From Squalus acanthias (lineage: Eukaryota): a DNA stretch of 64,000 nucleotides. Shown here piece by piece: positions 1 to 62,099 of this stretch. The first letter of the stretch is position 1; each line of letters begins with the position of its first letter. The position numbers were made by a program, and so were the translations under genes. Below the pieces are notes generated by a model. It saw nothing but the letters and a program-made list of their open reading frames with translations. It was not told the origin of the DNA and searched no databases. The stretch spans positions 126,544,001-126,608,000 of the forward strand of contig CM059431.1 of NCBI GenBank assembly GCA_030390025.1. The letters are read 5' to 3'.

Positions 1-1050
1 CATTTTTGCTGTCTCCCCATCATCGCAGCCGTTAATGGCTGCGGCTTGCTCAACTTCTCTGAAATGTACGGAAGGGTCGTCTGCCTCGGTCAGCTTCCAT
101 ACGTCATTTATCATAGCTCTCAGCTGATGTGAACTGTGAGGCAACACCAGCTGTCCGAGGAGATCCCCCGGTTCTTCCCCACCGTTTCTGCTTGGGCCCC
201 TTTTAATACCCGTTACTGGATACAACGATCCCTTTCCTACTTCTTTTTCAATGGGCTCTTTTGTTTCTTCCATTGCTTCCTCCCTAACCCAGGTTTCCGA
301 ATAGCTGGGTGGCGCGGAGGGCGCAGTGGCTACTACTTCTTCTGCTTTACTTGGTGGGGATTTCTTAAACCTCTCACTTACTAGCGGCTGGTGTGCCGAT
401 GGATTGATAAGGCACACCATGCCGTTCGCATTGTTCACGGCCTTTTTGAGGTGCTCTATCTCCCTTTGGCAGGCGCTATGATCGGCTCCCTGAAACTTAT
501 CCTCAAGGGCCAACTTATATGCCGCCCTAACCCCCGTTAAGCTCTCTTCTTGAGTTCTTATCTGGGCAGCTTGGCGGTTACATCTTTCCTTTAACCTGCT
601 CTCATTCAATTTTGCCTCAGTGACCTGGCACTCGAGATAATCTATCCTTGTTTTAAGGTGACTGGAGACTTCCTGGCTTTCTTGGTGTAACTCATTTAAA
701 TTCTTAATGAGCACCTCCCCTCCAGAAACCTTCTCATCCATTTCTCCCTCTAAATGACTGATTCGAGCTACTAGCGCTGTAATGGTCTGGTTTGAAATCT
801 GAACCTGCCTTTTGTAACACATAAGCCAGACTGCTTTCTCAAGTGTCTTTCTATGTTCTTTACTATCTGTCCACCTTTCAGCTGCCTCTAGTGGGCTCTT
901 ATCCGCTAACAATTCACTTATCCATTTCTTAGTTAGATTAACCTTTCCAAACACATAATCCGCTATCTTTTCCTGCATAACATTTCGTACAGTCATTCCA
1001 AAATCTAACACACTACCCTCTCGCTGCCAGTGTCCTGCCGCGGTCGCCAT
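1..1050 (-). CDS. gag: Gag-like polyprotein of an LTR retroelement (5' part, runs off the window edge)
   Basis: Manual translation gives 350 codons with no stop from the ATG at 1050 to base 1 (MATAAGHWQREGSVLDFGMTVRNVMQEK...DHSACQREIEHLKK...ATAPSAPPSY...DDPSVHFREVEQAAAINGCDDGETAKM). It lies directly downstream of the LTR and PBS. It is absent from the ORF track because no stop falls in the window. An alternative start is the ATG at 996. Confidence 0.8.
   Translation of the reverse strand, partial: MATAAGHWQREGSVLDFGMTVRNVMQEKIADYVFGKVNLTKKWISELLADKSPLEAAERWTDSKEHRKTLEKAVWLMCYKRQVQISNQTITALVARISHLEGEMDEKVSGGEVLIKNLNELHQESQEVSSHLKTRIDYLECQVTEAKLNESRLKERCNRQAAQIRTQEESLTGVRAAYKLALEDKFQGADHSACQREIEHLKKAVNNANGMVCLINPSAHQPLVSERFKKSPPSKAEEVVATAPSAPPSYSETWVREEAMEETKEPIEKEVGKGSLYPVTGIKRGPSRNGGEEPGDLLGQLVLPHSSHQLRAMINDVWKLTEADDPSVHFREVEQAAAINGCDDGETAKM
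1032..1049 (-). promoter_or_regulatory. Primer-binding site complementary to tRNA-Arg(UCG)
   Basis: Minus strand reads TGGCGACCGCGGCAGGAC. Plus strand GTCCTGCCGCGGTCGCCA matches the 3' 18 nt (with CCA) of vertebrate tRNA-Arg-TCG as I recall it. It sits 5 nt inside the LTR end. Confidence 0.88.
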
Positions 1051-1054
1051 TTTC

Positions 1055-2662
1055 TGTAAGGGATTCTGACCCTGCGTGTCTCGCAGCCTGTGAGATTCAC
1101 GCGGCTCTGTGCGGGTCTAGGACTTGTTGCCTGTTCTGGTCTCCAGCCAGTCTGGGAACACTAGACACACCTGTGAGTGGTTCGAATCACTCTCCCTTAC
1201 GGTTCTAGACACTGGACTTAGATGCGAGAGCAGTAATGGAGATGAAACTCATGTAGACTCGGTTTGAATGGTACGAAATGGAAAATCTTTATTGCATGAT
1301 ACTTAAGATTATGAAATACATGTCATAAGCACAGATTAATGACAGTACAATCTTACAAACAGTTATATAGTCGATCTTAGGGAAACGAGGAACGAACGGC
1401 ACAAAGTAAATAGGGGCACACATTACAAATATCCTTAATCCTTAAACCCTCCCCTATCAATATCTATCCTAAACTAGATTCGTAGGATCTCGAGACTCAT
1501 GCTCACCACTCGTGATAACTCGGAGAAATTCCGAATAGCTGATCGGATGTTTTTCACCGCAGCTCCCACGTGTCGGTCAGGAGATCTCCTGGTCCCACTT
1601 GTTTACTTGCTTCTGCTGCTCCGGCTAGCAGGCTGGAACGTCTGCTGTGATGAAGATCTGTATTGGTTGGTTTAACAGGTACTCTTCGAGCACAGTTGTC
1701 GATATCATCGATACGATATGTTTCTTTGCAAGTTCGAAGAAGTCTTCCTGGCAAGGAAAAACTTGGCTAATCGACCTACAGGCGCGGTCGGGATTTACTG
1801 ACCGTGGCGATGGATATGGTCTTCCTTTCTTCTCATCTCATCTCATCTCATCTCTTCTCGGGCCTTTTGGTTCCGATACCGGTTACCAATATAGGTCTTC
1901 GTTACGCGACACGAGGTAGATCCGAACGGATCAGAAAGTTCAACCGTCTTTTCAGAAGAGGCAACAGGCAAGCAGGAGCGAGCCCAACTACGAGTACACA
2001 GGAGCAACCACGATGATAAGAGCAGCAAGAGAAAGATGGACGGTTTGGAGCCTGCAATTATAGTGCAAAATCTTCCGTTTCCCGCCCAACTATAATGTCC
2101 ATTCTTTTGTTTAAGGTCTGGCGCTCAAATGTCTTGTATGGGTGATCTCCGTTCTTAATGGGTTTCGGGGCTACTCGTAAATGTCTGAGTACCTGTTAAT
2201 ATTTCTCCCATTGTTAAATCGGTCGGTGTTCTCCCTGGAGGGGTTTGGGGCTTCCAAGTGTCCTGTATAACTACCTGCTAACGGCTCTCTCATTGTAGAG
2301 TCGTTGGGATTTTACATATTAATGTCTTTTGGATGGGCCCTTGATTACTCGGTACAATGGCTTTCCTTTGTACCTGGGAGACCGATTTCAGTATCTATGT
2401 GTATACTGCAAACCCATAATGTCTCGTGTATTATCTTCACTGTGCTGACTCTTAATCGATCTTGCACAAATGTTTATTGGAACGCCATCTTGTCTGCCTG
2501 TTGAAAAGTCTAGAATGTTCTGTCACGAGGTGCGGCGGCCATTTTACAGGCTGCTTGTGTCCACTTTAAACCTGTCAGCATTCTGCTGAAATAAAAGCTG
2601 TTTGAACGAAACTCTGTGTTTTCTCCTTATTAATAAAATCGCGATATATTGCGAATTCTACA
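1055..2662 (-). mobile_element. 5' LTR (~1.6 kb) of the LTR retroelement
   Basis: Termini are TGTAG...TTACA on the minus strand, followed by PBS and gag. There is a TATAA near 2058-2062 and an AATAAA at 1288-1293 (minus). Its R/U5 part is homologous to the repeats at 2663-4215. Confidence 0.8.
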
Positions 2663-3383
2663 GCCGCCACTGTCAGTAAACCCCGACCGCGCCCGAAAAT
2701 ATAAATACAGGATTCTTCTTTGAGTTCTACCGACTACAACCTGTGTCGAGCACAGGAAGACCCTTCTTTGAACTGTGTCCGAGGTCCGTCGAGTTCTTCA
2801 TGACAACAGGGAGTCTGGCCTGCTTTTCGCAGCAGCGAAAGTAAACAAGTGGGGTGCAGAGACTCCTCCAAACACGTGACAGTCAGGCGCTGCAGCGAAA
2901 CGAGCTGAGTGCCTCACTTTAAAAATTTCCGAAGTAAAACGAGTGGTGAGCATGTTTTCCGATCCTACAAATCCAGACGTAGTGTAGGTATTGTTAAGGG
3001 AGGGTGGTTTTAATAAGGTTAAGATATAATGTGTTCCCCTTTCTACGATGTGCCGTGTGTTCTCCATTTCCATCGACCAAGCTTTATGAATGTATGTATA
3101 CTTGTACTATCTTTGATTTGCGCCTATGACATGTATTTCATGATTTTGGACGCCATGCAATAAAGATTACCATTTCGTACTATTCAACCGGGTCTATTTG
3201 AGTTTTCTCTGCATTACTGCTCCTTGCACCTAAGTCCACTGTTAGAACCGTAAGGGCGAGTGGGTCGAACCACTCACAGGTGCTTATTGCAAAAAGGCTG
3301 GCCGGAGACCAGAGCAAGCAATAGTATCAGGCGACGAAGGCCTAACCTCGCACCAGCACCGTCTGTGACACGTCCCCCTTACA
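2663..3383 (+). mobile_element. 5'-truncated LTR (R-U5 part) of a related family, copy A
   Basis: Shares GTCAGTAAA.CCCGACCGCGCC, GCAATAAAGATT..CCATTTCGTAC and AGAACCGTAAGGG..GAACCACTCACAGGTG blocks with the reverse complement of 1055-1900. It ends in CCCTTACA like that LTR. AATAAA at 3159. Confidence 0.8.
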
Positions 3384-4215
3384 GCCCCGACAAGGGCAAG
3401 TAACAGGGTACACCATCCCGAGTGTTGGTAAACGGTGTCTGGACCCGGAGGCCCGAGGAGACAAGACGAGAGAAGACGAGAAGAAATTCCACGTGCCGGC
3501 ACGGTCAGTAAACCCCGACCGCGCCCGAAAATATAAATACAGGACTCTTCTTTGAGTTCTACCGACTACAACCTGTGTCGAGCACAGGAAGACTCTTCTT
3601 TGAATTGTGTCCGAGGTCCGTCGAGTTCTTCATGACAACAGGGAGTCTGGCCTGCTTTTCGCAGCAGCGAAAGTAAACAAGTGGGGTGCAGAGACCCTTC
3701 CAAACACGTGACAGTCAGGCGCTGCAGCGAAACGGGCTGAGTGCCTCACTTTAAAAATCTCCGAAGTAACACGAGTGGTGAGCATGTTTTACGATCCTAC
3801 AAATCCAGACGTAGTGTAGGTATTGTTAAGGGAGGGCGGTTTTAATAAGGTTAAGATATAATGTGTTCCCCTTTCTACGATGTGCCGTGTGTTCTCCATT
3901 TCCATAGACCAAGCTTTATGAATGTATGTATACTTGTACTATCTTTGATTTGCGCCTATGACATGTATTTCATGATTTTGGACGCCATGCAATAAAGATT
4001 TCCATTTCGTACTATTCAACCGAGTCTATTTGAGTTTTTCTCTGCATTACTGCTCCCTGCATCTAAGTCCAGTGTTAGAACCGTAAGGGCGAGTGGGTCG
4101 AACCACTCACAGGTGCTTATTGCAAAAAGGCTGGCCGGAGACCAGAGCAAGCAATAGTATTAGGCAACGAAGGCCTAACCTCGCACCAGCACCATCTGAG
4201 ACACGCCCCCTTACA
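3384..4215 (+). mobile_element. 5'-truncated LTR (R-U5 part), copy B
   Basis: 3495-4215 is a near-identical direct repeat of 2663-3383 (about 20-25 differences by eye), with ~110 bp more upstream LTR sequence. It ends CCCTTACA. AATAAA at 3991. Confidence 0.8.
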
Positions 4216-4379
4216 CAGTTTAACCATGACCAGACATCTTCCCATTTCAGCTCGCAATAACTCCCTTCAGCACACAGCCGCTGCTGCCGCCGCCATGGTA
4301 ACCGATCACCGCCCCGCTCAGCAGCACCTGGCCGCTCTGCACCGGCACCGTTTAGGGTTTTTTTTTCGCGGACCCGCTG

Positions 4380-4431
4380 GAAAGTCTCGACAGACACAAG
4401 GGGTCTGCAGACCACAGTTTGAGAACCACTG
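4380..4431 (-). mobile_element. hAT/Charlie-like DNA transposon terminus
   Basis: Minus strand CAGTGGTTCTCAAACTGTGGTCTGCAGACCCC resembles Charlie-type TIRs. The partner end was not found. Confidence 0.45.
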
Positions 4432-4867
4432 TACTAACAAATGCCTCCCTGCTTTTAATGTCAGCTTTTTCTCATTCAGCAATCCCTCTATGTTGGTCAT
4501 CGCCGTCACATACGGCTCGTCTGTTTAGCTCATTACGGTGACCAACACCTCACAACCAGCCGTGTGAATAAGCTTCTTTTGAAGAGCTTCCCTGACAGTC
4601 ACCATGGTTACCCAAACTGCTGCAGTGATAAACTCACACACCCAATGAAAGGGGTTCCGACCTAAACGAAATTCAGTTTTGTACAAGTCCCGAACGTCCT
4701 AGGAACTTGGTGTCACACAATCAGGAGTGTTGCGAGTCAGGTCCTGTTTCATTCGACAATTGTAAGACAAATCAAATCTGAGAAACCAAATATAGTTGCA
4801 ACTTACTCCTTGGATTATGTTCAACCAAGTCCAGACAAATGTCATGTCTTAAAGCAATAGACACACA

Positions 4868-6613
4868 GACCACGATTTTATGAACCTCGGCCGTTCTGTG
4901 GCGGGCAAGGTCGGTGGCGGGTCCCGACCCCGCTGCTGGCTCCATCCCGGCCACTGAAATGAATTTTCCTTGATTGGGTTTGTTAAGCCCGCCCAGTGTG
5001 TTTCCTGGCCAAATAGAGGAAGCGGGTCTGGTGACGTAATTTGATGATGCGTCATCAGCCGGTTTCCTTAAAGGGTTCGTGGCCAAATTAATTTTGACAT
5101 TTATGCTGTCAGTGTTCGACAGCATTGAGGTGCTGCAAACACTGACAAGCACTGCACAGAGGTGCAGGGTTGCACCCAGGCTCTCCCATGACTGCCTCCC
5201 TATGCTTATGGAGGGAGTCACAACACGCAGGGAGTTCCTCTTCCCTTCCGATGGGCGGAGGAGACCTCCCCAGGAGATCAACACAGCCTGGTTGCACATT
5301 GCACAGGAGGGCACAAGCAGGGATGTGGTCAGGAGGACCAGGTGCAGTGCCGCAAACGTTTCAATGATCTCAGTAGATCACAAAATGTTAGTACAAAGCC
5401 ACACTCAAACTCATCTTGCTGTGCCTTTCATCACATCCCCATCACTCTGCCTTCCCTACCCTACTCCTGCACATCCTTACTCACACCAACTTACCTTGCA
5501 CCTCCACCTAGTCCTCTCTATCTATATTATCGCATCCCCATCTCACTAGCCACCCCTCACACTCACCCTCATCCTAGTCCAATCATACCAACTAACAACA
5601 CACAAGGGTAGGCACTTGGGTGTTTTATGTAATGTTCATGTAAAGTTTCTGTTAATGTGGTGCCAAACATTTAAACCTTTATTTTCAACACTTTGTGTTC
5701 TTGGACAGATTTGTGTGCACCTTTGGAAGTGGCTTAGTCAATGGTGAGACATAGCGGTAGCCCCCGCAATGGTCATGAGTGTGAAAGGAATGGCTTGGGC
5801 ATTGTAGGGTGGTGCCAACCTGGCACATCATGTGGCAGCCAGGGTGTACAGCATCAAGTGAAGTAAATCTGGCCATGGTGAGGCCATCCCTGGCTTCCTG
5901 GGTAGCAATGCGGTCGGGTGCTGATGCCCTGTGTCCTGTGCAGCATCAGTTGATTGGGGAGAAGATTGATGTTATTGTTGGTGCTGCTGGTGTCCTTGGT
6001 GCTGCTGGTGTGCCTGGTGATGCTGGTGTTGTGGCTGATCGTGGTGGGGTTCTGAGGACCAAGGTGAGAGAGTTTCAAGGGCACCCATGCTGATGGAATA
6101 GATGGCAGGTTACGCAGAGATGACAGAAGTGATCTGTCAATGGTGAGAGAGGTAATGAGATCAGACTGGATGGAGACTTGTGTAAAGACTTGCCAAATCC
6201 TGAATCTGTAGTGGAAATACAGTTTAGTGAAGCTAGTGGTTAAGGGAACGTTTCTCAATAAGCTGGGAGCTTTGACTTGACATTTGAAGCTGTCAACTCA
6301 TCAGCTGATTCAATGGCCACTGATCTCCCACCTCAGCTTCACAGACGAGATCTAGGCACAGCGGGAAACTGGTGGGCGACCTGTCAAATCCAAAAAGATG
6401 GGGAAAAACCATAAATAAGTGGCTGTAAACAAGCCACTAATGATTTTAATTGTGTGTTGGGTCTGCTCAGCGCTGACAGACCCGACATTTGATCCAGGCG
6501 CGTGGCGGTGGGTTCACAGTGGAGTCCCGCGACCCACTGGCGGAAAAAAAAACACTTTCCCACCCGATCCACCACCAATCGTGCCCGCTGACCCCCCTCA
6601 CAAAATCCAGCCC
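4868..6613 (+). mobile_element. Internally deleted PIF/Harbinger element, copy 1
   Basis: Imperfect TIRs (GACCACGATTTT / AAAATCCAGCCC). Degraded Myb/SANT exon 1 on + (APRLS...AWLHIAQE...QCRKRFNDL). On the minus strand the transposase N-terminus is joined to its C-terminus. Homologous to 34215-35920 and 62100-63398. Confidence 0.75.
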
Positions 6614-6874
6614 TAAGAGAAATAAACACAATTACCCCATTTTTCCCTGAGTAGAGTTGTAACCTTCATCGATCCTTTTGATCCTGACTCTCTCTACAAA
6701 TTGTTAAGGAAAGCTCAAGACCTTTATAGGACTCTAGTCATGCACCCTAAATGATTTATTATATCCTGTGATCAAGACCCCATTTTCAGATACTTACATA
6801 TATATGAGCATTTCTGAAGTAAAATTTCCTCAAGGAATTATTAATACAACTAATCTTCATACATATCAACACAA

Positions 6875-8441
6875 CTGAATATCGTGAGAGAGGAAATATT
6901 AAGGGATTTAGCATCTTTGAAAGTAGTTAAATCGCCAGGCCCGGATCAAATGTAAAGAGAAGCAAGGGAGGAAATTGTGGAGGCTCTGACCATCATTTTC
7001 CAATCCTCTCTGGCTACAGGTGTGGTGCCGGAGGACTGGAGGACAGCTAACATTGTACCATTCCTTAAAAAGGGAGAAAGGGATAGACTGAGTAATTACA
7101 AACCAGTCAGCCTAACCTTGGTGGTGGGCAAATTATTGGAAAAAATTCTGAGGGACAGTATTATTCATCATTTATAAAGGCACAGATTAATCAAGGACAG
7201 TCAGTATGAAATTGTTAAGGGAAGGTCATGTCTCACTAACTTGATTGAATTTTTTGAGGAGATAACAAGGAAAGTCGATGAGGGTAGCAAGTTTGATGTA
7301 GTCTATATGGATTTTAGCAAGGATTTTGACACGGTCAGGAAAGTAAAAGCCCATGGGATCCAAGGGAACGTGGCAAATGGATCCAAAATGGCAGGAAGCA
7401 AAGGGTAATGGTCAACGGGTGTTTTAGTGACTGGAAGGCTGTTTCCAGTGGGGTAATGCAGGGCTCAGTACTAGGTCCCTTGCTTTTTGTGGTATACATC
7501 AATGATTTAGACTTCAATGTAGGGGCTATGACTAAGAAGTTTGCCAATGATACAAAAATTGGCCATGTGGTTGATAGTGAGGAAGAAAGCTGTAGACTGC
7601 GGGAAGATATCAATGGACTGGTCCGGTGGGCAGAAAAGTGGCAAATGGAATTCAATCTGGAGAAGTGTGAGGTAATGCATTTGGGGAGGGCTAACAAGGC
7701 AAGGGAATACACAGTAAATTGTAGGATACTGAGAAGTGTAGAGGAACAGAGGGACCTTGGAGTGCATGTCCACAGATCCCTGAAGGTAGCAGGACATGTA
7801 GATAAGGTGGTTAAGAAGGCATACGGGATACTTTCCTTCATTAGCCGAGGCTAATAAATAAGAACAGGGAGGTTATGCATGAACTGTATAAAACATAAAT
7901 TAGACCACAGCTAGAGTACTGTGTACAGTTCTGGTCAGCACATTACAGGAAAGATGTGATTGCACTGGAGAGGGCTTAGAGGAGATTTACAAGGATTTTG
8001 CCAGGACTGGAGAATTTTAGCAATGAGGAAAGATTGGTTAGGCTGGGGTTGATTGCTTTGGAACAGAGGAGGCTGAGGGGAACTTAATTGAGGTGTATAA
8101 AATTATGAGGGGCATAGATAGAGTAGATAGAAAGACCTAATTCCCTTAGCAGAGAGGTCAATAACCAGGGGACATAGATTTAAAGTAATTGTTAGAAGAA
8201 TTAGAGGGGAGTTGAGGAGGGCAGTGGGGGTCTGGAACTCACAGCCTGAAAGGGTGGTAGAGGCAGAAACCCTTATCACATTTAAAAAGTACTTGGATAT
8301 GCACCTGAAGTGCCGTAGCCTACAAGGCTACGGACGAAGAGCTGGAAAGTGGGATTAGGCTGGATAGCTGTTTTTCGACTGACACAGACACGATGGACCG
8401 AATGACCTCCTTCTGTGCCATAAATTTCTATGATTCTATGA
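6875..8441 (+). mobile_element. CR1 LINE, 5'-truncated RT/3' end, degraded
   Basis: PEDWRTANIVP, QGSVLGPLLF..YIND, KFANDTK, WQMEFN..KC motifs with stops; CTATGATT tail. Confidence 0.9.
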
Positions 8442-29968: not shown

Positions 29969-32900
29969 AGAACATAAGAAATAGGAGCAGGAATAGGCCA
30001 CTTGGCCCCTCGAGCCTGCTCCACCATTCAATAAGATCATGGCTGATCTTGAGCTCAAAGCCACTTCCCCGCCCGCTCCCCATAACCCTTCACTCCCTTA
30101 TCTTGCAAAAATTTGTCCATCTCCACTTTAAATGTATTTAATGACCCAGCCTCCACAGCTCTCTGGGGCAGAGAATTCCACAGATTTACGACCCTCTGAG
30201 AGAAGAAATTCCTCCTCATCTCACTTCTAAAAGGGCGACCCTTTATTCTAAAACTGTGCCCCCGCATTCTAGATTTCCCCACGAGTGGAAACATCCTCTC
30301 TGCATCTACCTTGTCGAGCCCCCTCAGTATCTTATATGTTTCAATAAGATCACCTCTCATTCTTCTAAATTCCAATGAGTATTGGCCCAGCCTGCTCAAC
30401 CTTTCCTCATAAGTCAACCCCCTCATCTCTGGAATTAACCTAGTGAATTATCTCTGAACTGCCTCCAATGCAAGTATATCCTTCCTTAAATAAGGAGACC
30501 AAAACTGTACGCAGTACTCAAGGTGTGGTCTCACCAATATCCTGTACAGTTGTAGCAGGACTTCCCTGCTTTTATACTCCAACCCCTTTGAAATAAAGGC
30601 CAACATTCCATTTGCCTTTTTGATTACTTGCTGCACCTGCATGCTAACTTTTTGTGTTTCATGCACAAGGACCCCCAGGTCCCTCTGAACTGTAGCATTT
30701 TGTAATCTCTCTCCATTTAAATAATAATTTGCTTTTTCATTTTTCCTGCCAAAGTGTATAACCTCGCACTTTCCCACATTATATTCCATCTGCCAAATGT
30801 TTGCCCACTCACTTAGCCTGTCTATATCCCTTTGCAGGTTCTTTGATTCCTCTGCACAACTTGCTTTCCCACCAATCTTTGTATCATCCGCTAACTTGGC
30901 TACATTACACTCGGTCCCTTCATCCAAGTCATTAATGTAGATTGTAAATAGTTGAGGCCCCAGCACCAATCCCTGTGGCACCCCACTAGTTACCGTTTGC
31001 CAACCGGAAAATTACCCATTTATCCTGACTATCTGCTTTCTGATAGTTAGCCAATTCTCTATCCATGCTAATATATTACCCCCAATTCCATGAGCTCTTA
31101 TCTTATGCAGTAACCTTTTATGTGGCACCTTATCGAATGCCTTCTGGAAATCCAAATACACCACATCCACTGGTTCACCTTTGTCCACCCTGCTCGTTAC
31201 CTCCGCAAAGAGCTCCAGCAAGTTTGTTAAACATGAGTTCCCTTTCATAAAACCATGCTGACTCTGCTTGACTGCATTATGATTTTCCAAATGCCCTGCT
31301 ACTACTTCCTTAATGAGGGACTCCAGCATTTTCCCAACGACAGATATTAGGCTAACTCGTCTATAGTTTCCTGCTTTCTGTCTCCCTCCTTTCTTAACTA
31401 GGGGTGTTACATTTGCGGTTTTCCAATCCGCTGGGACCTCTCCAGAGTCCAGGGAATTTTGGTATATTGCAACCAATGCATCCACTATCTCTGCAGCCAC
31501 TTCTTTTAAGACCCTGGGATGTAGGCCATCTGGTCCAGGGGACTTGTCATCTTTTAGTCCCATTATTTTACCAAGTACTATTTCCTTAGTGATAGTCATT
31601 GTCTTTAGTTCCCCCCTCCCTGTGGCCCCTTGATTATCCATTATTGGGATGTTGTTAGTGTCTTCTACCGTGAAGACAGAAACAAAATATTTGTTCAGAG
31701 TCTCTGCCATTTCCCCGTTCCCCATTATTAATTCCCCAGTCTCATCCTCTAAGGGACCAACATTTACTTTAGCTACCCTCTTCCTTTTTATATACCTCTA
31801 GAAGGTCTTACTATCTGTTTTAATGTTTCTTGCCAGTTTACTCTCATAATTCATCTTCTCTCTCTTTATTATTTTTTTAGTCATCCTTTGCTGGTTTTTA
31901 AAAATTTCCCAATCCTCTGGTCTCCCACCAACCTTGGCAACATTGTATGCCTTCGTTTTCAATTTGATACCATCTTTTACTTCCTTAGTTAGCCACAGGA
32001 TGGTGCTCCCTTCTCTTAATATCTTTCTTTCTCACTGAATATATTTTTGTTGAGAGTTATGAAATATCTCCTTAAATGTCCGCCACTGCATTTCGACTGT
32101 CTTACCCTTTAATTTATTTTTCCAGTCCACTTTAGCCAGTTCTGCTCTCATGCCACTGTAATTGCCTTTGTTTAATATCAGGACTGGTTTGAGATACAAC
32201 TTTCTCACCCTCCAACTGAATTTGAAATTCAACCATGCTATGATCACTCTTTCCTAGAGGATCCTTTACTATGAGATCATTTATTAATTCTGTCTCATTA
32301 CATAGTACCAGATCCAAGATAGCCTGCTCCCTGGTTGGTTCCATTACATACTGTTCTAGGAAACCATCCCGGATGCACTCTATGAACTCCTCCTCAAGGC
32401 TACCATGGCTAATTTCATTTGTCCAATCAATATGGAGATTAAAATCACTCATGATTATTACTGTACCTTTTTTACAGGCCTCCATTATCTGTTGATTTAT
32501 ACTCTGTCCAACAGTATTGCTACTGTTTGGGGGCCTGTAGACTTCGCCCACCAGAGACTTTTTCCCTTTATTATTTTTTATCTCCACCCAAACCGATTCT
32601 ACATCTTGATCTTCTGAGCCAATATCACTTCTCGCCACTGCACTGATCCCATCCTTTACCAACAAAGCCACCCCACCTTACTTTCCTTTCTGTCTATCCT
32701 TCCGAATTGTCAAATACCCTGGAATATTCAGTTCCCAGCCCTGATCACCTTGCAACCACGTCTCTGTAATGGCGATCAGATCATACCCATTTGTATCTAT
32801 TTGTGCCGTCAACTCATCTATCTTGTTACGAATGCTGCGTGCATTCAGATATAGAACTTTTAACTTTGCCCTTTTACCATTTCTCCTTGTTTAGGCCCCA

Positions 32901-34214: not shown

Positions 34215-35920
34215 GGGCTGGATTTTACCAACCTTGGACGGTCTGTGGCGGGCGCTGTCGGTGGCGGGTTCCGGCCTCACTGCTGGCTCCAGCCCGCTGT
34301 CCAAAATGATTTTCCCGATTGGACTTGTTAAGCCCGCCCAGCGCGTTTGCTGGCCAATTGAAGGAAGTGGGTCTAATGATGTCATTTGATGATGCATCAT
34401 CAGCCGGTTTCCTTAAAGCGACATTGCACAAATTCAGTTTGACAGTTGTGCGGTCAGTGTTCTACAGCATTGAGGTGCTGCGAACACTGACAAGCACTGC
34501 ACAGAGGTGCACGGCTGCACCCAGGCTCTCCCATGACTCCTTCCATATGCTTATAGAGGGAGTCACAGCACGCAGGGAGGTTCTTTTCCCTTCCCATGGG
34601 CAGAAGAGACCTCCCCAGGAGCCCAACGCAGCCTGGTTGCACATTGCACAGGAGGACACAAGCAGAGATGTCATCAGGAGGACCTGGCTGCAGTGGCACA
34701 AACCTTTCAATGATCTCAGTAGATCACGAAACGTTACTGCCAAGCCACACTCAGCCTCATCCTGCTGTGCCACTCATCACATCCCCATCACTCTGCCTTC
34801 CCTACCCTACTCCTGCACATCCTTACTCACACCAACTTACCTTGCTTCTCCACCCATCCCTCTCTATCTACATTATCACTTCCCCATTTCACTAGCCACC
34901 CCTCACACTCACCCTCATCCTAGTGCAATCATACCAACAAAAAACACACAAGGGTAGGCACTTGGGTGTTTTATGCAATGTTCATGTAAAGTTTCTGTTA
35001 ATGTGGTGTCAAACATTGAAACCTTTAGTTTCAATACTTTGCCTTCTTGGACAGATCTGTGTGAACCTTTGGAAGTGGCTTAGTGAGTTGCAGTGATTGG
35101 TGAGATGTAACGGTATCCTCTGCAATGGTGATGAGTGTGAAAGGAATGGCTTGAGCATTGTAGGGATGCTTTATGGTGTTGATGTGGGGTGGTGCCAACC
35201 TGGCGCATCATGTGGCAGCCAGGGTGTACAGCCTCAAGTGAACTAAATCTGGCCATGGTGAGGCCATCTCTGGCATCCCGGGCAGCAGTGTGGTCGAGTG
35301 CTGATGCCCTGTGTCCTGTGCTGCATCAGTTGACTGTGGAGAAGGTTGGTGTTGTTGTTAGTGCTGCTGGTGTGCCTAGTGTTGCTGGTGTTGGGGCTGA
35401 TTGTGGTGGGACTCGGAGGACCAAGGTGAGATAGTTTCAGGTGAACCAATGCTGATGAAATAGATGGCAGGTGAACTTGAGATGACAGAAGCGATCTGTC
35501 AACAGTGAGAGAGGTTGTTCCAATGAGGTGACACTGGATAGAGAGTTTGCTCCAAACACTTGCAGCCAGCATAAAGCTCAATCTGTCTTCCAAATGCAGT
35601 AAGCAACAGCTTCTGAGCTTGGAAAGTGAACAGCTATGAGATGGGAGTTTTTATAGCACATTTGCAGCTGCCAATTAATGAGATGATTCCATGGTCATTC
35701 AACTCCCGACCTTCTTACCTGACGTGACCTGAACTGCATAGAGCCCGTGGGCAACCTGGTAAACTCTGAAGGTGAGCTCAAAATAGTTCTCAATGGTCTG
35801 TTAACAATGTCATAATGACCTGAATTGCCTCCCTTGCCGCTGCGTGTCGGGTCTGCTCAGCACTGACAGACCCGACATTTGGGAAATGCTCGTGGCGACG
35901 GGTTGACAGCGGGGTCCCCC
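34215..35920 (+). mobile_element. Internally deleted Harbinger element, copy 2
   Basis: Begins GGGCTGGATTTT; collinear with 4868-6613; right TIR missing; interrupts a LINE. Confidence 0.8.
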
Positions 35921-41546: not shown

Positions 41547-42754
41547 CTAAGCAAATCTGGCCAAGATGAGTGTGTCCCTTGCATCTTGGGCAGCCGCTGG
41601 TTGATGCGCCTCCGCAAGCTGTTCATTGTCGCTCTCCTCCTCCTCCTCCTTCTCATCTGAGGAGCCTATGCAATGAGCCACTTGTACCTCAGGCAGCTGC
41701 AAGCCACGATGCTGTGCCATGTTGTTAAGTGCACAGCAGATCACGACGATTCCGGAGACCCTGGCTGCTGAGTACTGCAGGGCTCCACCTGATCTATCAA
41801 GGAATCTGAATCGTATCTTCAGCAAGCCGATGGTTTGCTCAATTATGGATCTGGTGGAAATGTGGCTTGAGTTGTAGCACTCCTCAATTTCATTGGATGG
41901 GCTCCTCAATGGCGTCATTAGTCACGTCTTCAGGGGATAGCCCTTGTCTCCAAGTAGCCATCCGAAAAGTTGTTCTGGCGGACTGAAGAGTGGAGGCACA
42001 CTAGACTGGCACAGGATGAAGGAGTCATGGCAACTGCCAGGGTACTTGGTGCAAACATGCAGAATTTCCTTCTTGTGGTTACACACCAGCTGCACGTTGA
42101 GGGAATGGAAGCCTTTGCGGTTGACAAAAATACCTGGATTGTGATGGGGTGCCTTAAGGGCCACATGTGTGCAGCCCTGCACCCTTGGAAAGCCTGCCAG
42201 ATTAGCAAATCCAACCGCACACGCGGTTACACTTGCTTGATCCTTGGTGAAATGGATGTGATTGTGCGCGATGGCAAAGAGGGCATCGGTTACCTGCGTG
42301 ATGCAAGTGTATGCGGCCGCCTGGGAGAAGCCATCTGCTGTTGATCCCTGGAATGAGCCTGAAGCAAAAAAGTTGAGTGCGGTGGTGACTTTGACGGCCA
42401 CTGGTAAGGGGTGTCCACCCGCTCCTCTGGGCTCCAGGTCTTGCTGCAGCATTGCGCAGATATCACCCACTACCTCTCGCGAAAGTCGGAGCCTCCTTTG
42501 GCACTGCTGCTCAGTCATGTTGAAGTGGCTCATCCTCTGTCTGTAAACCCTGTTTTTTGGGTATCTCCTGCGGCGACGTGCTTCCATGCGCTGGCACCTT
42601 CTGGCCTGTGCAGCTTCAGGTGGGTGAGCAGCAGCTTGGTGCTCCTGTTGTTGCTCCTGCTGTTGGTGCTGCTGTTGTTCAGGGTTCTGCTGCTGCCGCG
42701 GCTGGTCTTTGTCCGAATCTGAGGTCAGGAGGAAAGGAAATAAATGGTACCCAT
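41547..42754 (-). pseudogene. HARBI1-like DDE transposase
   Basis: [59 protein letters not shown] replaces a conserved Trp at 41922-41924, and the xID codons before CTHV are deleted. Confidence 0.9.
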
Positions 42755-43935
42755 TCTTCTGGTATATGCCTCAGTTGAGAAGCGCTCAGTCAAGGTGGGG
42801 AGAGGGGTTTCCCAGGAGGTCACACTGGAGATGGGTCTCAGGCTCCAAACTTCCACAACAATGAGTAGGCCTGCTAAAAATTCTCCCAGACCTAAGAAAA
42901 CAAAGTTCTGCCACCTGCAAATGATGTTTGCTGAAAACTCCTTTTTATTGGTGGAGCTGCAGCTGTTAGTAAGCAGTCCACTTGTGAGGCCGCCAGGATT
43001 AACTGGCGTGTTCCAGAGGAGACGTGCAGCACGGGGGAAATGTGTTAAATTCAGAAAGGCCTCTCAAAATGGGATTATAGAGGACCTTAACTGGTTGTTA
43101 AGGGACTTAAGGGCCTATCCCGCCTCTTCGAGGCGGGATGGAAACGGGGTCTGAAACCCCGATTTTGGGAAAATTGCTCAGAGGCGGGCTGGAGGTGGGT
43201 TTGGATCCACCCGCCATTTTTTTGCAATTTTAACACCTCACACGCCTCTAAACCCGCCTCCTCGGACCTGGCAAAATTGAGCCCTGTGACTCTAGTTCTA
43301 GACTCTCCAGACAGGGGAAACATCCTCCCTGCATCTACCCTGTCAAGCCCTGTAAGAATTTTGTATGTTTCAATGAAATCACCTTTTATTCTTCTAAACT
43401 GCAGAGAATATAAGCCTAGTCTACTCAATCTCTCCTCATAAAATAATCCCCCCATCCCAGTAATCAGTCTGGTGAACCTTTGTTGCACACCCTCTATGGC
43501 AAGTATATCCTTCCTTAGGTAAGGAGACCAAAACTGTACACAATACGCCAGGTGTCGTCTCACTAGGGCCCTATATAATTGCAGTAAGACGTCTTTACTC
43601 CTATACTCAAATCCTCTTGTAATAAAGGCCAACAAACCATTTGCTTTCTTAATTGCTTGCTGTACCTACATATTAACTTTCAGTGATTCGTATACAAGGA
43701 CACCCAGATCTCTCTGAACACCAACATTTCCAAATCTCTCACCATTTAAAAAATACTCTGCTTTTCTATTTTTCCTACCAAAGTGGATAACTTCACATTT
43801 CTCCACATTATATTCCATTTGCCATGTTCTTGCCCACTCACTTAGCCTGTCTATATCCCCTTGAAGCTGCTTTGCATCCTCCTCACAACTTACATTCCCA
43901 CCCAGCTTTGTGCCATCAGCAAAATTCGATATAAT

Positions 43936-57488: not shown

Positions 57489-58045
57489 GGGGGGCAAAAT
57501 TCGGTTGCTTTCGCGAGAGGCTTTAGCAGCGCCACACCCGGGCGCAAAGCAACTACAGCCCGGGTGTGGCGCTGCTAAAGCCTCTCGCGAAATTCAGCAG
57601 AGGTTAGCGGCAGCGGTAACCGGTAGTGCCCTGCGGCGCTGCGCCTCCGGCGATGATGTCATCGCTGTGCGCAGCACCCCAGCTGCGAACTTCGGTAGCG
57701 CCCTCTGACTTACCGCCGGACGCTAGGTCCGACAGGGTCAGGGGGGCGTACGAGTGGCCGGGGCAGCGATATTTAAAGGGGAGGTGCCGGGCAGCCATTT
57801 TTGTTGCTGGCCGCCTGCCAGCACCTGCCCCCTTTGCCGTCCCTGGCCTCCAAGGCAGCCCTCTGCGCTCTTTTGACGGCATCCCTGGTGGCCCAGCTGG
57901 GCCCCGGGTCATGCTGCGCAATGTCCCTCCCCTTTGGGGCGCTACCAATGAATTTCAAGTGTGGGGGTGCTAAGTTTTTCGGAGCACTAAAAGGAGCACC
58001 CCGACGAAGTTAGCGCCCAAAAGGGGGCACGACCGAATTTTTGCC
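57489..58045. mobile_element. Harbinger MITE related to 15368-16112
   Basis: Collinear internal sequence (GCCATTTTTGTTGCTGG..GCCTGCCAGCACCTGCCCCCTTTGCCGTCCC); starts GGGGGCAAAATTC. Confidence 0.75.
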
Positions 58046-59113
58046 TGATTGACTCCTGCTCTGCCATTGGCCCAGAGCCTGCTCCCCTCCTCCAATCCAC
58101 ACACCCTTACCCCAACCCAGTCATTGGCCCAGAGTTGGCGCACCTCCTCCAATCCACACACCCTGCATCCCACCCTGCCATTGGCCGAGAGCCTGCTCGC
58201 CTCCTCCGATCCATACATACTGACTCCTACCCGGTCATTGGTCCAGAGTCTGCTCACCTCCTCCAATCCACACACACTGACTCCTACCCTGCCATTGACC
58301 CAGAAACTGCTCACCTCCTCCAATCCACACACACTGACTCATACCCGGCCATTGACCCAGAGCCTGCTCACCTCCTCCAATCCACACACACTGACTCATA
58401 CCCGGCCATTGGCCCAGAGCCGTCTCACCTCCTCCAATCCACACACACTGACTCCTACCCTGCTATTGGCCCAGAAACTGCTCACCTCCTCCAATCCACA
58501 CACACTGACTCCTACCCGTCTATTGGCCCAGAGCCTGCTCACCTCCTCCAATCCACACACACTGACTCATACCCGGCCATTGACCCAGAGCCTGCTCACC
58601 TCCTCCAATCCACACACTGACTCCTACCCGACCATTGACCCAGAGCCTGCTCACCTCCTCCAATCCACACACACTGACTCCTACCCGACCATTGGCCCAG
58701 AGCCTGCTCACATCCTCCAATCCACACACATTGAATCCTACACGGCCATTAGCCCGGAGCCATCTCACCTCCTCCAATCCACACGAACTGACTCCTACAC
58801 TGCCATTGGCCCAGAGCCATCTCACCTCCTCCAATCCACACACATTAAATCCTACACGGCCATTGGCCCAGAGCCTGCTCACCTCCACAGATCCACAGAC
58901 ACTGACTCATACCTGGCCATTGGCCCAGAGCCTCCTCACATCCTCCAATCCACACACGCTGACTAGATAGGCTGCAGCTAGAATAAAGCGTGCAGTTCTG
59001 GTCACCACATTACAGGAAGTGTGTGATTGCACTAGAGAAGGTGCAGAGGAGATTTACGAGGATGTTGCCTGGGCTGGGGAATTTTAGCTATGAGGAAAGA
59101 TTGGATAGGCTGT

Positions 59114-60170
59114 CCTCACTTTTCACCCCACCAGCCTCCACATTCAACAGATCATCCTCCGCCATTTCCACCACCTCCAGCGTGATCCCACCACCAAATG
59201 CATCTTCCTCTCACCTCCCCTTTCAGCATTCCGCAGGGACCGCTCCCTCCGCAACACCCTAGTCCACTCCTCTACCACCCCCAGCACCCATTCCCCTTCG
59301 CCCGGCACCTTCCCGTGCAAGCGCAGGAGATGCAACACCTGCCCTTATACCTCCCCCCTTCTCACTGTCCAGGGCCCCAAACACACCTTCCAGGTGAAAC
59401 AACAATTTACTTGTACTTCCTGCAATTTAGTATACTGTATTCGCTGCTCACGATGTGGTCTCCTCTACATTGGGGAGACCAAACACAGATTGGGTGAACG
59501 CTTTGCGGAACACCTCCGTTCAGTCCGTAAGGGGGACCCCGAGCTCCCGGTGGCCTGTCACTTTAATTCACCGCTCCATTCCCACTCAGACCTCACCGTC
59601 CTCGGCCTCTTGCATTGTTCCACGGAAGCTCGAGGAACAGCACCTCATCTTTCGATTAGGAACTCTACAGCCCTCTGGACTCAACATAGAGTTCAACAAT
59701 TTCAGATCATAACCCCGGCCCCCATCACATATATGTATATTTTTATTTCATTTTTTTATCCACACTTTTGTGTGGCATTTTTTTCTTCCCTCCCAGAAGC
59801 TGGCAGCTGACCTTCATTCTGCCAGCGCATTTCACACTTCATCTAGAGCCATCCTTTGTTCCTGTCCCATTTCCACCTCCTCTTGCCTTGAATATCTCTT
59901 AATGTCTCTCAATGTCTCTTAATCTCTCCTGCTTTCTATCCTATCACTGACCTTCCCTTTTGTTCTTTCATCCCCTCCCCCTTTTCCCAGCCCTAAACCT
60001 GCTTTAAAATCTATTTAATTTCCTGCTTTTTTCCAGTTCTGACAAAAGGTCTTCCACCTGAAACGTTAACTCTGTTTCTCTCTCCACGGATGCTGCCTCG
60101 CCTGCTGAGTTTTTCCAGCGTTTTCTGTTGTTATTTCGGATTTCCAGCATCTGCAGTATTTTGCTATCGT
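59114..60170 (+). mobile_element. Penelope-like element 3' part (GIY-YIG endonuclease)
   Basis: CKRRRCNTCP...FTCTSCNLVYCIRCSRCGLLYIGETKHRLGERFAEH...P.GLN; flanked by the 14-bp direct repeat ATTGGATAGGCTGT (59100-59113, 60171-60184). Confidence 0.9.
60035..60071 (+). ncRNA. Degenerate minimal hammerhead ribozyme motif of the Penelope element
   Basis: AGTT-CTGACAA-A-AGGT(cttcc)ACCT-GAAA-CGTT-AACT; the CUGAnGA core carries a G>A change. Confidence 0.55.
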
Positions 60171-60930
60171 ATTGGATAGGCTGTGGTTGTGTTCTTTGGA
60201 ACAGAGGAGGTTGTGGGGAGACCTAATTGAGGTGTATAAAATTATGAGGGGCCTAGATAGAGTGGATAGGAAGGACCTATTTCCCTTAGCAGAGGGGTCA
60301 ATAATCAGGGGCATAGATTTAAAGTAATTGGTCGGAAGTTTATAGGGGATTTGAGGAGAATTTTTTTCACCCAGAGGGTGGTGGGGGTCTGGAACTCACT
60401 GCCTGAAAGGGTGGTAGAGGCAGAGACCCTCATCATATTTAAAAAGTACTTGGATATGCACTTGAAGTGCCATAACCTACAAGGCTATGGACCAAGTGCT
60501 GGAAAGTGGATAGTGAAAGGGTGGATAGCTCTTTGTCTGGCCGGCACGGACAAGATGGACTGAATGGCCTCCTTCTGTGCTGTAAATTTCTATGATTCTA
60601 TGACTCCTACGCTGCCATGGGCCTGCTCACCTCCTCCAATCCAGACACATGGACTCCTACCCGGTCCTGGCTCAGATCGTATTCACCTCCTCCAATCCAA
60701 ACACCCTGCCATAGCTACAGAGCCTGCTCACCTGCTCCAATCCACACATACTGACTCCGACTCGACTATTGGCCCAGAGCTTGTCGCCTCCTCCTCCATC
60801 CACACACAGCACTCCTACCTTGCCATTGACCCAGAGTCTGCTCTCCTCCTCCAGTCCACACACAGTGACTCCTACTCTGCCATTGGCCCAGAGCCTGATC
60901 ACCTCCTCCAATCCACACACAGTGACTCCT

Positions 60931-61490
60931 AATAAAAGATGGGATAAAGACAGTAGAGAGAAAGGATCTTAGCTCTGAAAATCAAGAAGTAGAATCAGTT
61001 TGGGTGCAGCTAAGAAACAGCAAGAGGCAGAAAACATTGGTTAAAGTTGTTTATAGGCCCCCAAACAGTAGTTGTAAAGTAGAGCAGAGTATAAATCAGG
61101 AAATTAGAGACGCATGTAACAAAGGTAATACAATAATCATGGGGGACTTTAAGTTACATATAGACTAGGCAAACCAAATTAGCAGTAATAGTGTGGAGGA
61201 CGAATTCATGGAATGTATGCAAGATAGTTTTCTAGATCAGTATGTTGAGGAACCAACTAGGGAACAGGCTATTTTAGATCTAGTATTGTGCAACGAGAAA
61301 GGGTTAATTAATAACTTTGTAGTAAAGGGGCCTTTAGGGAAGAGTGACCATAATATGATGGAATTTTATATTGAGTTTGAAAGTGACTTAGTTAAATCCA
61401 AAACTAGGGTCTTAAATCTAAACAAAGCAAACTACGTAGGTATGAGGGGCGAGTTGGCTATGGTAGATTGGGAAACGACATTAAAAGGTA
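60931..61490 (+). mobile_element. CR1 ORF2 endonuclease fragment
   Basis: VYRPP, MGDF, EPTREQAILDLVLCN, LGKSDHNM. Confidence 0.85.
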
Positions 61491-62099
61491 TGGCCCAGAG
61501 CATGTTCACCTCCTCCAATCCACACATACCGACTCCTACCATGCCATTGGCACAGAGCTTGCTCAGCTCCTCCAATCCACACACACTGACTCCTACCCTG
61601 CCATTGGCCCAGAGCTTGCTCAGCTCCTCCAATCCACACACACCAACTCCTACCCTGCCATTGGCCCAGAGCTTGCTCACCTCCTCCAATCCACACACAC
61701 TGACTCCAACCCTGCCATTGGCACAGAGCCTATTCACCTCCTGCAATCAAGGCATACTGTCTCCTACCCTGCCATTGGCCCAGAGCTTGCTCACATCCTC
61801 CAATCCACACACACTGACTCCCACCCTGCCATTGGCCCAGACTCTGCTCACCTCCTGCAATCCACGCATACTGAATCCTACCCTGCCATTGGCCCAGAGC
61901 CTGCTCACCTTCTGTAATCCACACACACTGATGGCACTGTGTAAGAGCAGACAGCCAATCAGATGAAACTCTCCCCCTGCCCCACCCCCTGTGACACTGT
62001 GTCCCTCGCTCTTTGCTGGCTCGCACTCTGGTCATTGGGCCCAGCCCCGTGAATTTGACTACGCGGGTGTTTACAAATCGCCGCACACCTGCGCCTTAG

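Follow-up and report, generated by a model that had tools for sequence, protein, structure and literature searches.

Three related LTRs stacked in the Squalus acanthias genome, probably by serial nesting of retrovirus-like elements

Three related LTRs, which we call C, A and B from left to right, stand directly against one another near the left edge of a 64-kb stretch of the Squalus acanthias genome (hereafter the window). This three-LTR geometry is confirmed and lies far beyond chance. The reading that we prefer, with a probability of about 0.62, is that it was produced by two ordinary integrations with a loose CpG or promoter preference and no fixed target site. Provirus A would first have integrated, via integrase, into the LTR of its relative B, and the younger provirus C would later have integrated in the reverse direction into the LTR of A, again via integrase. 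A loose preference for promoter-like, CpG-rich chromatin would have raised the odds of both insertions. With integration as the joining step, the left halves of A and B would lie beyond the window. Coordinates are given in Table 1; positions counted along LTR C carry the prefix C.

Table 1. Features of the LTR stack and of element C, in window coordinates.
Feature	Positions	Strand	Evidence
gag ORF of 350 codons; its ATG overlaps the primer site and it stays open to the window edge	1..1050	-	
Primer-binding site, 18 nt, 5 nt downstream of the LTR end	1032..1049	-	
LTR C, complete 5' LTR, TGTA...TACA	1055..2662	-	termini; high contig depth throughout; contig starting at 2662
AATAAA, likely poly(A) signal, at C1370; kept in A (3159-3164) and B (3991-3996)	1288..1293	-	
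Putative TATA box of the LTR (C601)	2058..2062	-	motif scan
Junction 1, C 5' terminus / middle of A (B-equivalent 111/112, about C850); right target word GCCG(C)	2662..2663	.	
Right part (721 bp) of LTR A up to its terminal CA, no primer site after it: 3' or solo LTR	2663..3383	+	
Junction 2, A terminal CA / middle of B (about C746); right target word GCCC(C)	3383..3384	.	
Right part (832 bp) of LTR B up to its terminal CA, then host CAGTT: 3' or solo LTR	3384..4215	+	

LTR C is the reverse complement of 1055-2662, is 1,608 bp long, starts with TGTA and ends with TTACA. Downstream of its end come a 5-nt spacer, the 18-nt primer site and the gag ORF, within which the window's left edge falls. 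LTRs A and B also terminate in TTACA. A is truncated on the left and adjoins the 5' terminus of C at 2662, and its own terminal CA adjoins the truncated B; the primer site is absent after the end of A and after the end of B. Over positions 112-832 of B, A and B have the same letter at 698 of 720 aligned positions (96.9%), with 22 substitutions, two indels and a K2P distance of 0.031. B and the matching part of C (about C746-1608) agree at 608 of 762 positions (79.8%), with local blocks at 74-76%. The two breakpoints are separated by 111 bp in target coordinates. The right-hand flanks read GCCGCC at 2663 and GCCCCG at 3384, and B's own right flank starts with CAGTT. The initial annotation had described a minus-strand LTR ending at 2662 against the middle of a related plus-strand LTR, the TTACA end of the latter at 3383 against the middle of a near-identical copy, breakpoints about 110 bp apart and flanks that both start with GCC; the termini and alignments bear out each of these points. 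The remainder of the 64-kb window holds no further copy of the LTR family.

The putative TATA box, with a presumed transcription start, precedes the breakpoints by about 145 and 250 nt. LTR C carries a second AATAAA at C185. A 5-nt tandem of 5.8 copies lies inside LTR C at 1831-1859, between the two breakpoint positions, and the version in B is shorter and different.

Contigs of four runs (X1, X3, X5 and X6, of twenty-two runs listed) were aligned on window positions 500-3494. In these contigs, 3384-3494 is high-copy family LTR that in other copies continues into the sequence at 2663. The joint runs from 3494 to 2663 in X1, X3 and X6 and from 3492 to 2663 in X5, so that the target is continuous across junction 1 in four of four runs. 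The sequence interrupted by C is thus uninterrupted in other copies. At junction 2, target continuity comes solely from homology to C746 onward. LTR C is high-copy throughout, with a contig depth at least that of gag, and one X3 contig starts exactly at 2662. As a rough guide, since depth is not copy number, contig depth suggests hundreds of copies with gag and thousands of LTRs. Scans of viral contigs and of metagenomes, by LTR start or LTR motif and by Gag, found no other copies.

The two joints themselves stand on the assembly, because none of the 32 contig pieces listed (of 24,874) bridges 2662/2663 or 3383/3384. These unbridged junctions, the high copy number of the repeat and the fact that the best runs contain 0.62-0.64 of the sampled words are what an assembly misjoin between repeat copies has in its favor. 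A misjoin, however, needs common sequence at the joint and has no reason to fall on LTR termini twice, and the gradient of private letters described below agrees with a real history. We consider a misjoin extremely unlikely.

Both joints lie exactly at a terminus of the inner element, namely the TGTA start of C (2662) and the TTACA end of A (3383). A and B are nevertheless adjacent, on the same strand and 96.9% identical, and they could in principle descend from one copy, either through an 832-bp tandem duplication, which the initial annotation had named as the alternative, or as the two LTRs of a single provirus that lost everything from the 5' LTR end to a point within the 3' LTR. C would then have inserted once, and since a single insertion suffices, the improbability of the triple would vanish. 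Against duplication or deletion, neither of which need respect LTR termini, stands the exact position of both joints at such termini; the breakpoint would have had to hit the terminal CA exactly.

The letters of A and B speak to the same question. The family variant table was seen for 40 of its 158 rows, 25 of them in A and 8 in C. In 16 of the 25 A rows the letter is common to A and B, and none of these letters is rarer than 5.8% in three runs of organism A; in seven, A has a letter of its own at a family frequency of at most 4%. None of the 16 shared rows holds a private letter shared by A and B, a result (0 shared of 7 private letters) that still permits a shared fraction of up to 0.35. At 2927 and 2938, A carries minority family letters (1-19% and 3-15%) that are absent from B. 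The extra T after 3202 in B is a 5-18% family variant absent from A, at a T run that could slip. Since the two copies made by duplicating an old LTR would have private letters in common and A and B have none in these rows, a one-copy origin is disfavored; two LTRs of one provirus are disfavored because A and B differ at these three family-polymorphic sites. A tandem duplication should leave shared private changes and no family-polymorphic differences, and the 40 of 158 rows seen have neither property. Nor do A and B look like a tandem LTR array, with a whole LTR between two internal regions, for there is no primer site or internal region between them. Origin from one copy is in our view distinctly unlikely. 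Serial nesting, with C inserted into A and A into B as the initial annotation had proposed, is favored by the terminus-exact joints together with the variant letters, and the duplication that it had offered instead loses ground on the same evidence.

The variant letters also give an order. C has one private letter in 1,608 bp (eight rows) and A has seven in 721 bp (Fisher P = 0.0016, for the rows seen). C is likely the youngest layer, as nesting requires, and B is likely the outer layer; the geometry points to A having entered B. For B, exclusion leaves at most 13 private substitutions, with the aligned contigs stopping at 3494, before 3495-4215. A (seven private letters in the rows seen) and B could be of like age, as would be expected if the DNA of B, whether A's own or a sister cDNA, had still been unintegrated when A inserted into it and the two had then entered the chromosome as one molecule, leaving the insertion of C into A as the only chromosomal one. 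Such a course would account for a terminus-exact joint in an LTR of the same subfamily without chromosomal targeting. True autointegration, however, requires that A and B started out identical, and the polymorphic sites contradict this; among the paper listings searched, we found no documented case of germline fixation of such a product. We judge it very unlikely.

Three other routes to the joints were set aside. A strand-transfer (strong-stop) origin of the A/B joint was rejected, as the spacer seen after the end of C is absent after A, and a retrocopy origin was rejected, as A and B continue beyond AATAAA as far as the LTR end. Joining driven by microhomology was not taken up for junction 1 (P 0.02-0.07). 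The C terminus at 2653-2662 resembles the sequence upstream of the target at 7 of 10 letters with one gap, which 2-7% of LTR sites equal.

Element C is likely a retrovirus-like provirus, with its pol, reverse transcriptase included, and its env outside the window. It has TG...CA termini, a tRNA primer site and a gag with a capsid fold, the fold having been tested on a protein 47% identical to its Gag. Two tRNA-shaped genes have a 3' end that matches the primer site, L002 at 18 of 18 letters and L001 at 17 of 18; ARAGORN gave no isotype for them, and we take the primer tRNA to be tRNA-Arg(UCG). The gag ATG overlaps the primer site (1032-1050, minus strand), where the first residues MATAAGHW are encoded; the Rhinoraja relative starts with MATTKGHW. 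That relative, the closest to the Gag of C, is the 47%-identical Rhinoraja longicauda protein (P0002), which is 588 aa long and has one CCHC knuckle. The named Gag relatives come from one skate, two sharks and Xenopus.

The predicted fold of P0002, from 18 sequences with a mean pLDDT of 75, comprises a long coiled coil, a beta-hairpin (281-302) and a helical capsid fold; an earlier fold from three sequences, at pLDDT 45.8, was discarded. The best structural match of the predicted capsid is the C-terminal domain of MLV CA, with Z 11.5, rmsd 2.3 and 87 aligned residues (a further MLV CA match has Z 11.4), followed by Copia (Z 10.0) and by PEG10 and dArc2 (9.3). Foldseek likewise gave the MLV capsid as its best match (E 0.005), and an Atlas feature search tended to Retrotrans_gag/Ty3_capsid clusters (0.95). 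Sequence searches of the PDB matched mainly zinc knuckles, a Pfam search of the window's gag ORF matched no gag family, and an Rfam search of 1-8000 gave nothing credible (one match at E 0.32). PSAP, PPSY and LYP motifs stand at about 250-330 on the minus strand (residues 245-275 of the window's Gag, P0001), between the coiled coil and the capsid, and we take them to resemble retroviral late domains. Troyka was set aside as the family identity because of its CG termini, and neither the description of Odin nor wider literature searches put a name to the family. The Gag of zebrafish BHIKHARI, a lokiretrovirus-related element, is described as an N-terminal coiled coil followed by a capsid, with a glycine-rich patch at the end of Bik-1 Gag (PMC12067270). 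P0002 has the same predicted order of coiled coil and capsid, whereas the relatives of C Gag have one CCHC knuckle instead of a glycine-rich patch.

We then come to what brought the insertions together. Both joints fall in C701-900, the CpG-richest segment of the LTR, with 9 and 7 CpG per 100 nt; the other bins have 1-7 and the window mean is 2.5. A soft promoter bias would be the likeliest driver of the stack, a reading drawn from two events and an unmapped start site. Under uniform integration, 0.0005-0.05 three-deep stacks are expected at 3,000-10,000 copies in a genome of 3-5 Gb, and up to 0.38 at 20,000 copies, all inputs being assumed. The argument from rarity for a bias is weakened because the genome contains many LTR families.

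A stronger proposal is family-specific homing. The initial annotation had suggested that the family may home to a segment inside the LTRs of its relatives and build nested stacks; on this reading the integration complex would recognize part of early R in such LTRs, and stacks would arise genome-wide. The lineage would in that case direct its insertions to the CpG-rich early R region of related LTRs, whichever way round they lie and even in subfamilies that differ by 20%. The two successive insertions (n = 2) do lie within 111 bp of one LTR region with GCC after both, uniform integration would seldom give a stack three deep, and the window is without other family copies. However, two points in a 1,608-bp LTR fall within 111 bp of each other with a probability of 0.13. 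Two LTR sites share their first 3-mer with a probability of 0.017, for a GCC feature that was picked post hoc. The insertions hit different bases in opposite orientations, and in element orientation the target words are CGGC (C), GCCC (A) and CAGT (B). Base-specific homing fails because these three words differ and the joints lie 111 bp apart; that spacing is unremarkable. B itself sits outside any family LTR. The two hits in the same LTR region stand, and homing to it, with its differing bases and words and a spacing of P = 0.13, is not shown; we think it unlikely. Our search of the literature, mostly outside subscription journals, found no description of LTR-directed self-targeting by a vertebrate retrovirus.

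Other loci were represented in the contigs by joints within the family. One opposite-strand joint, 2917/3377, occurs at another locus at a depth of 11-19 in X1, X3 and X5 (three runs, two samples) and brings nearly the end of one A-type LTR up against the interior of a second one; as aligned, the last 6 nt to the terminus are missing. This joint may possibly be a further nested LTR-end-in-LTR insertion, going by the contig sequence. Being 254 bp downstream of junction 1, it falls outside the segment to which homing would be directed, and in this respect it counts against homing. At most one of the 15 joints listed (of 23) joins a terminus to an LTR. Among the 24 loose ends listed (of 798) there were no LTR-end flanks, and the share running on into unlike sequence was 0-0.01, a view of low sensitivity. 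The small number of terminus-to-LTR joints is not evidence against homing, because the contig view displayed no LTR-end flanks. The joints 1165/3282 and 1168/3279 were rejected as insertions because they are length variants of the C type that align to A; 1660/2788 was rejected because it connects homologous places.

Several known systems resemble the stack in part. In plants, LTR retrotransposons insert into older members of their own family, and Jedlicka et al. (2019; PMC6911290), writing on these 'autoinsertions', give the LTR as the least-hit part of the target, which speaks against our preferred reading. Our stack is alike in its nesting within own-family copies, and a position bias along the target is reported for theirs; it differs in being made of a vertebrate retrovirus-like element with two successive hits in the LTR. 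For the human genome, comparable statistics come from a study that we take to be by Levy et al. It describes 'TE nepotism', in which THE1A/B are over-represented in MLT1 and Alu in Alu, with position hotspots on the targets (PMC2836564). Theirs are statistics on thousands of events, whereas ours is a single locus with two events, whose partners are much closer in age and sequence than theirs.

BET proteins guide MLV integration to promoters, enhancers and CpG islands (PMC4176367, PMC4027182), and the first of these papers presents the tether as gammaretrovirus-specific. Our joints are similar in lying in a CpG-rich segment behind a putative LTR promoter, and with the MLV capsid as the top fold match, MLV may serve as a working model. 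The integrase and genus of element C lie outside what the window shows. The promoter preference of MLV is an analogy here and not a test, because its BET tether is described as gammaretrovirus-specific.

In rice, tandem arrays of LTR retrotransposons are described as sharing whole LTRs between internal regions (PMC11899658). The present row of three LTRs from one lineage recalls these arrays, but A and B lack their left parts and adjoin without an internal region, and C is inverted and only about 80% alike. The site-specific LINEs Zepp/ZeppL and Tx1 form self-nesting stacks by hitting a fixed base through their endonuclease. Relatives are stacked in relatives here as well, but a single base or word hit repeatedly is not what we see, the joints being 111 bp apart with different target words.

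The window around the stack is rich in other repeats. Self-repeated sequence makes up 47% of it, and the LINE and DNA-transposon ORFs are broken. A broken LINE reverse transcriptase and endonuclease, a Myb/SANT ORF and a DDE_Tnp_4 ORF occur at 30451-32677, 34310-34954 and 41925-42770. Between two arrays of 57-bp repeats at 57954-62018 stands an ORF that matches GIY-YIG weakly (59109-59807, E 2e-4, below the cutoff), an arrangement that suggests a putative Penelope-like element. A candidate terminal repeat lies at 4400-4431 on the minus strand, 185 bp to the right of B, and its second copy is absent from the window. We presume it to be a look-alike of a hAT/Charlie-type terminal repeat. B itself may lie inside a DNA transposon.

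Nesting within the same family is already known in plants and humans, and the present stack is a further instance. Taken alone, the locus is a neat though unexceptional trace of a high-copy retroviral family that has inserted into its own relatives, and it places two subfamilies in relative order, with C younger than A. If an excess in the promoter segment of the LTR were found genome-wide, it would be a rare case of retrovirus-like self-targeting in a vertebrate germline. If such self-targeting is true, nested stacks would silence the promoters of older copies and would give new copies a harmless landing site.
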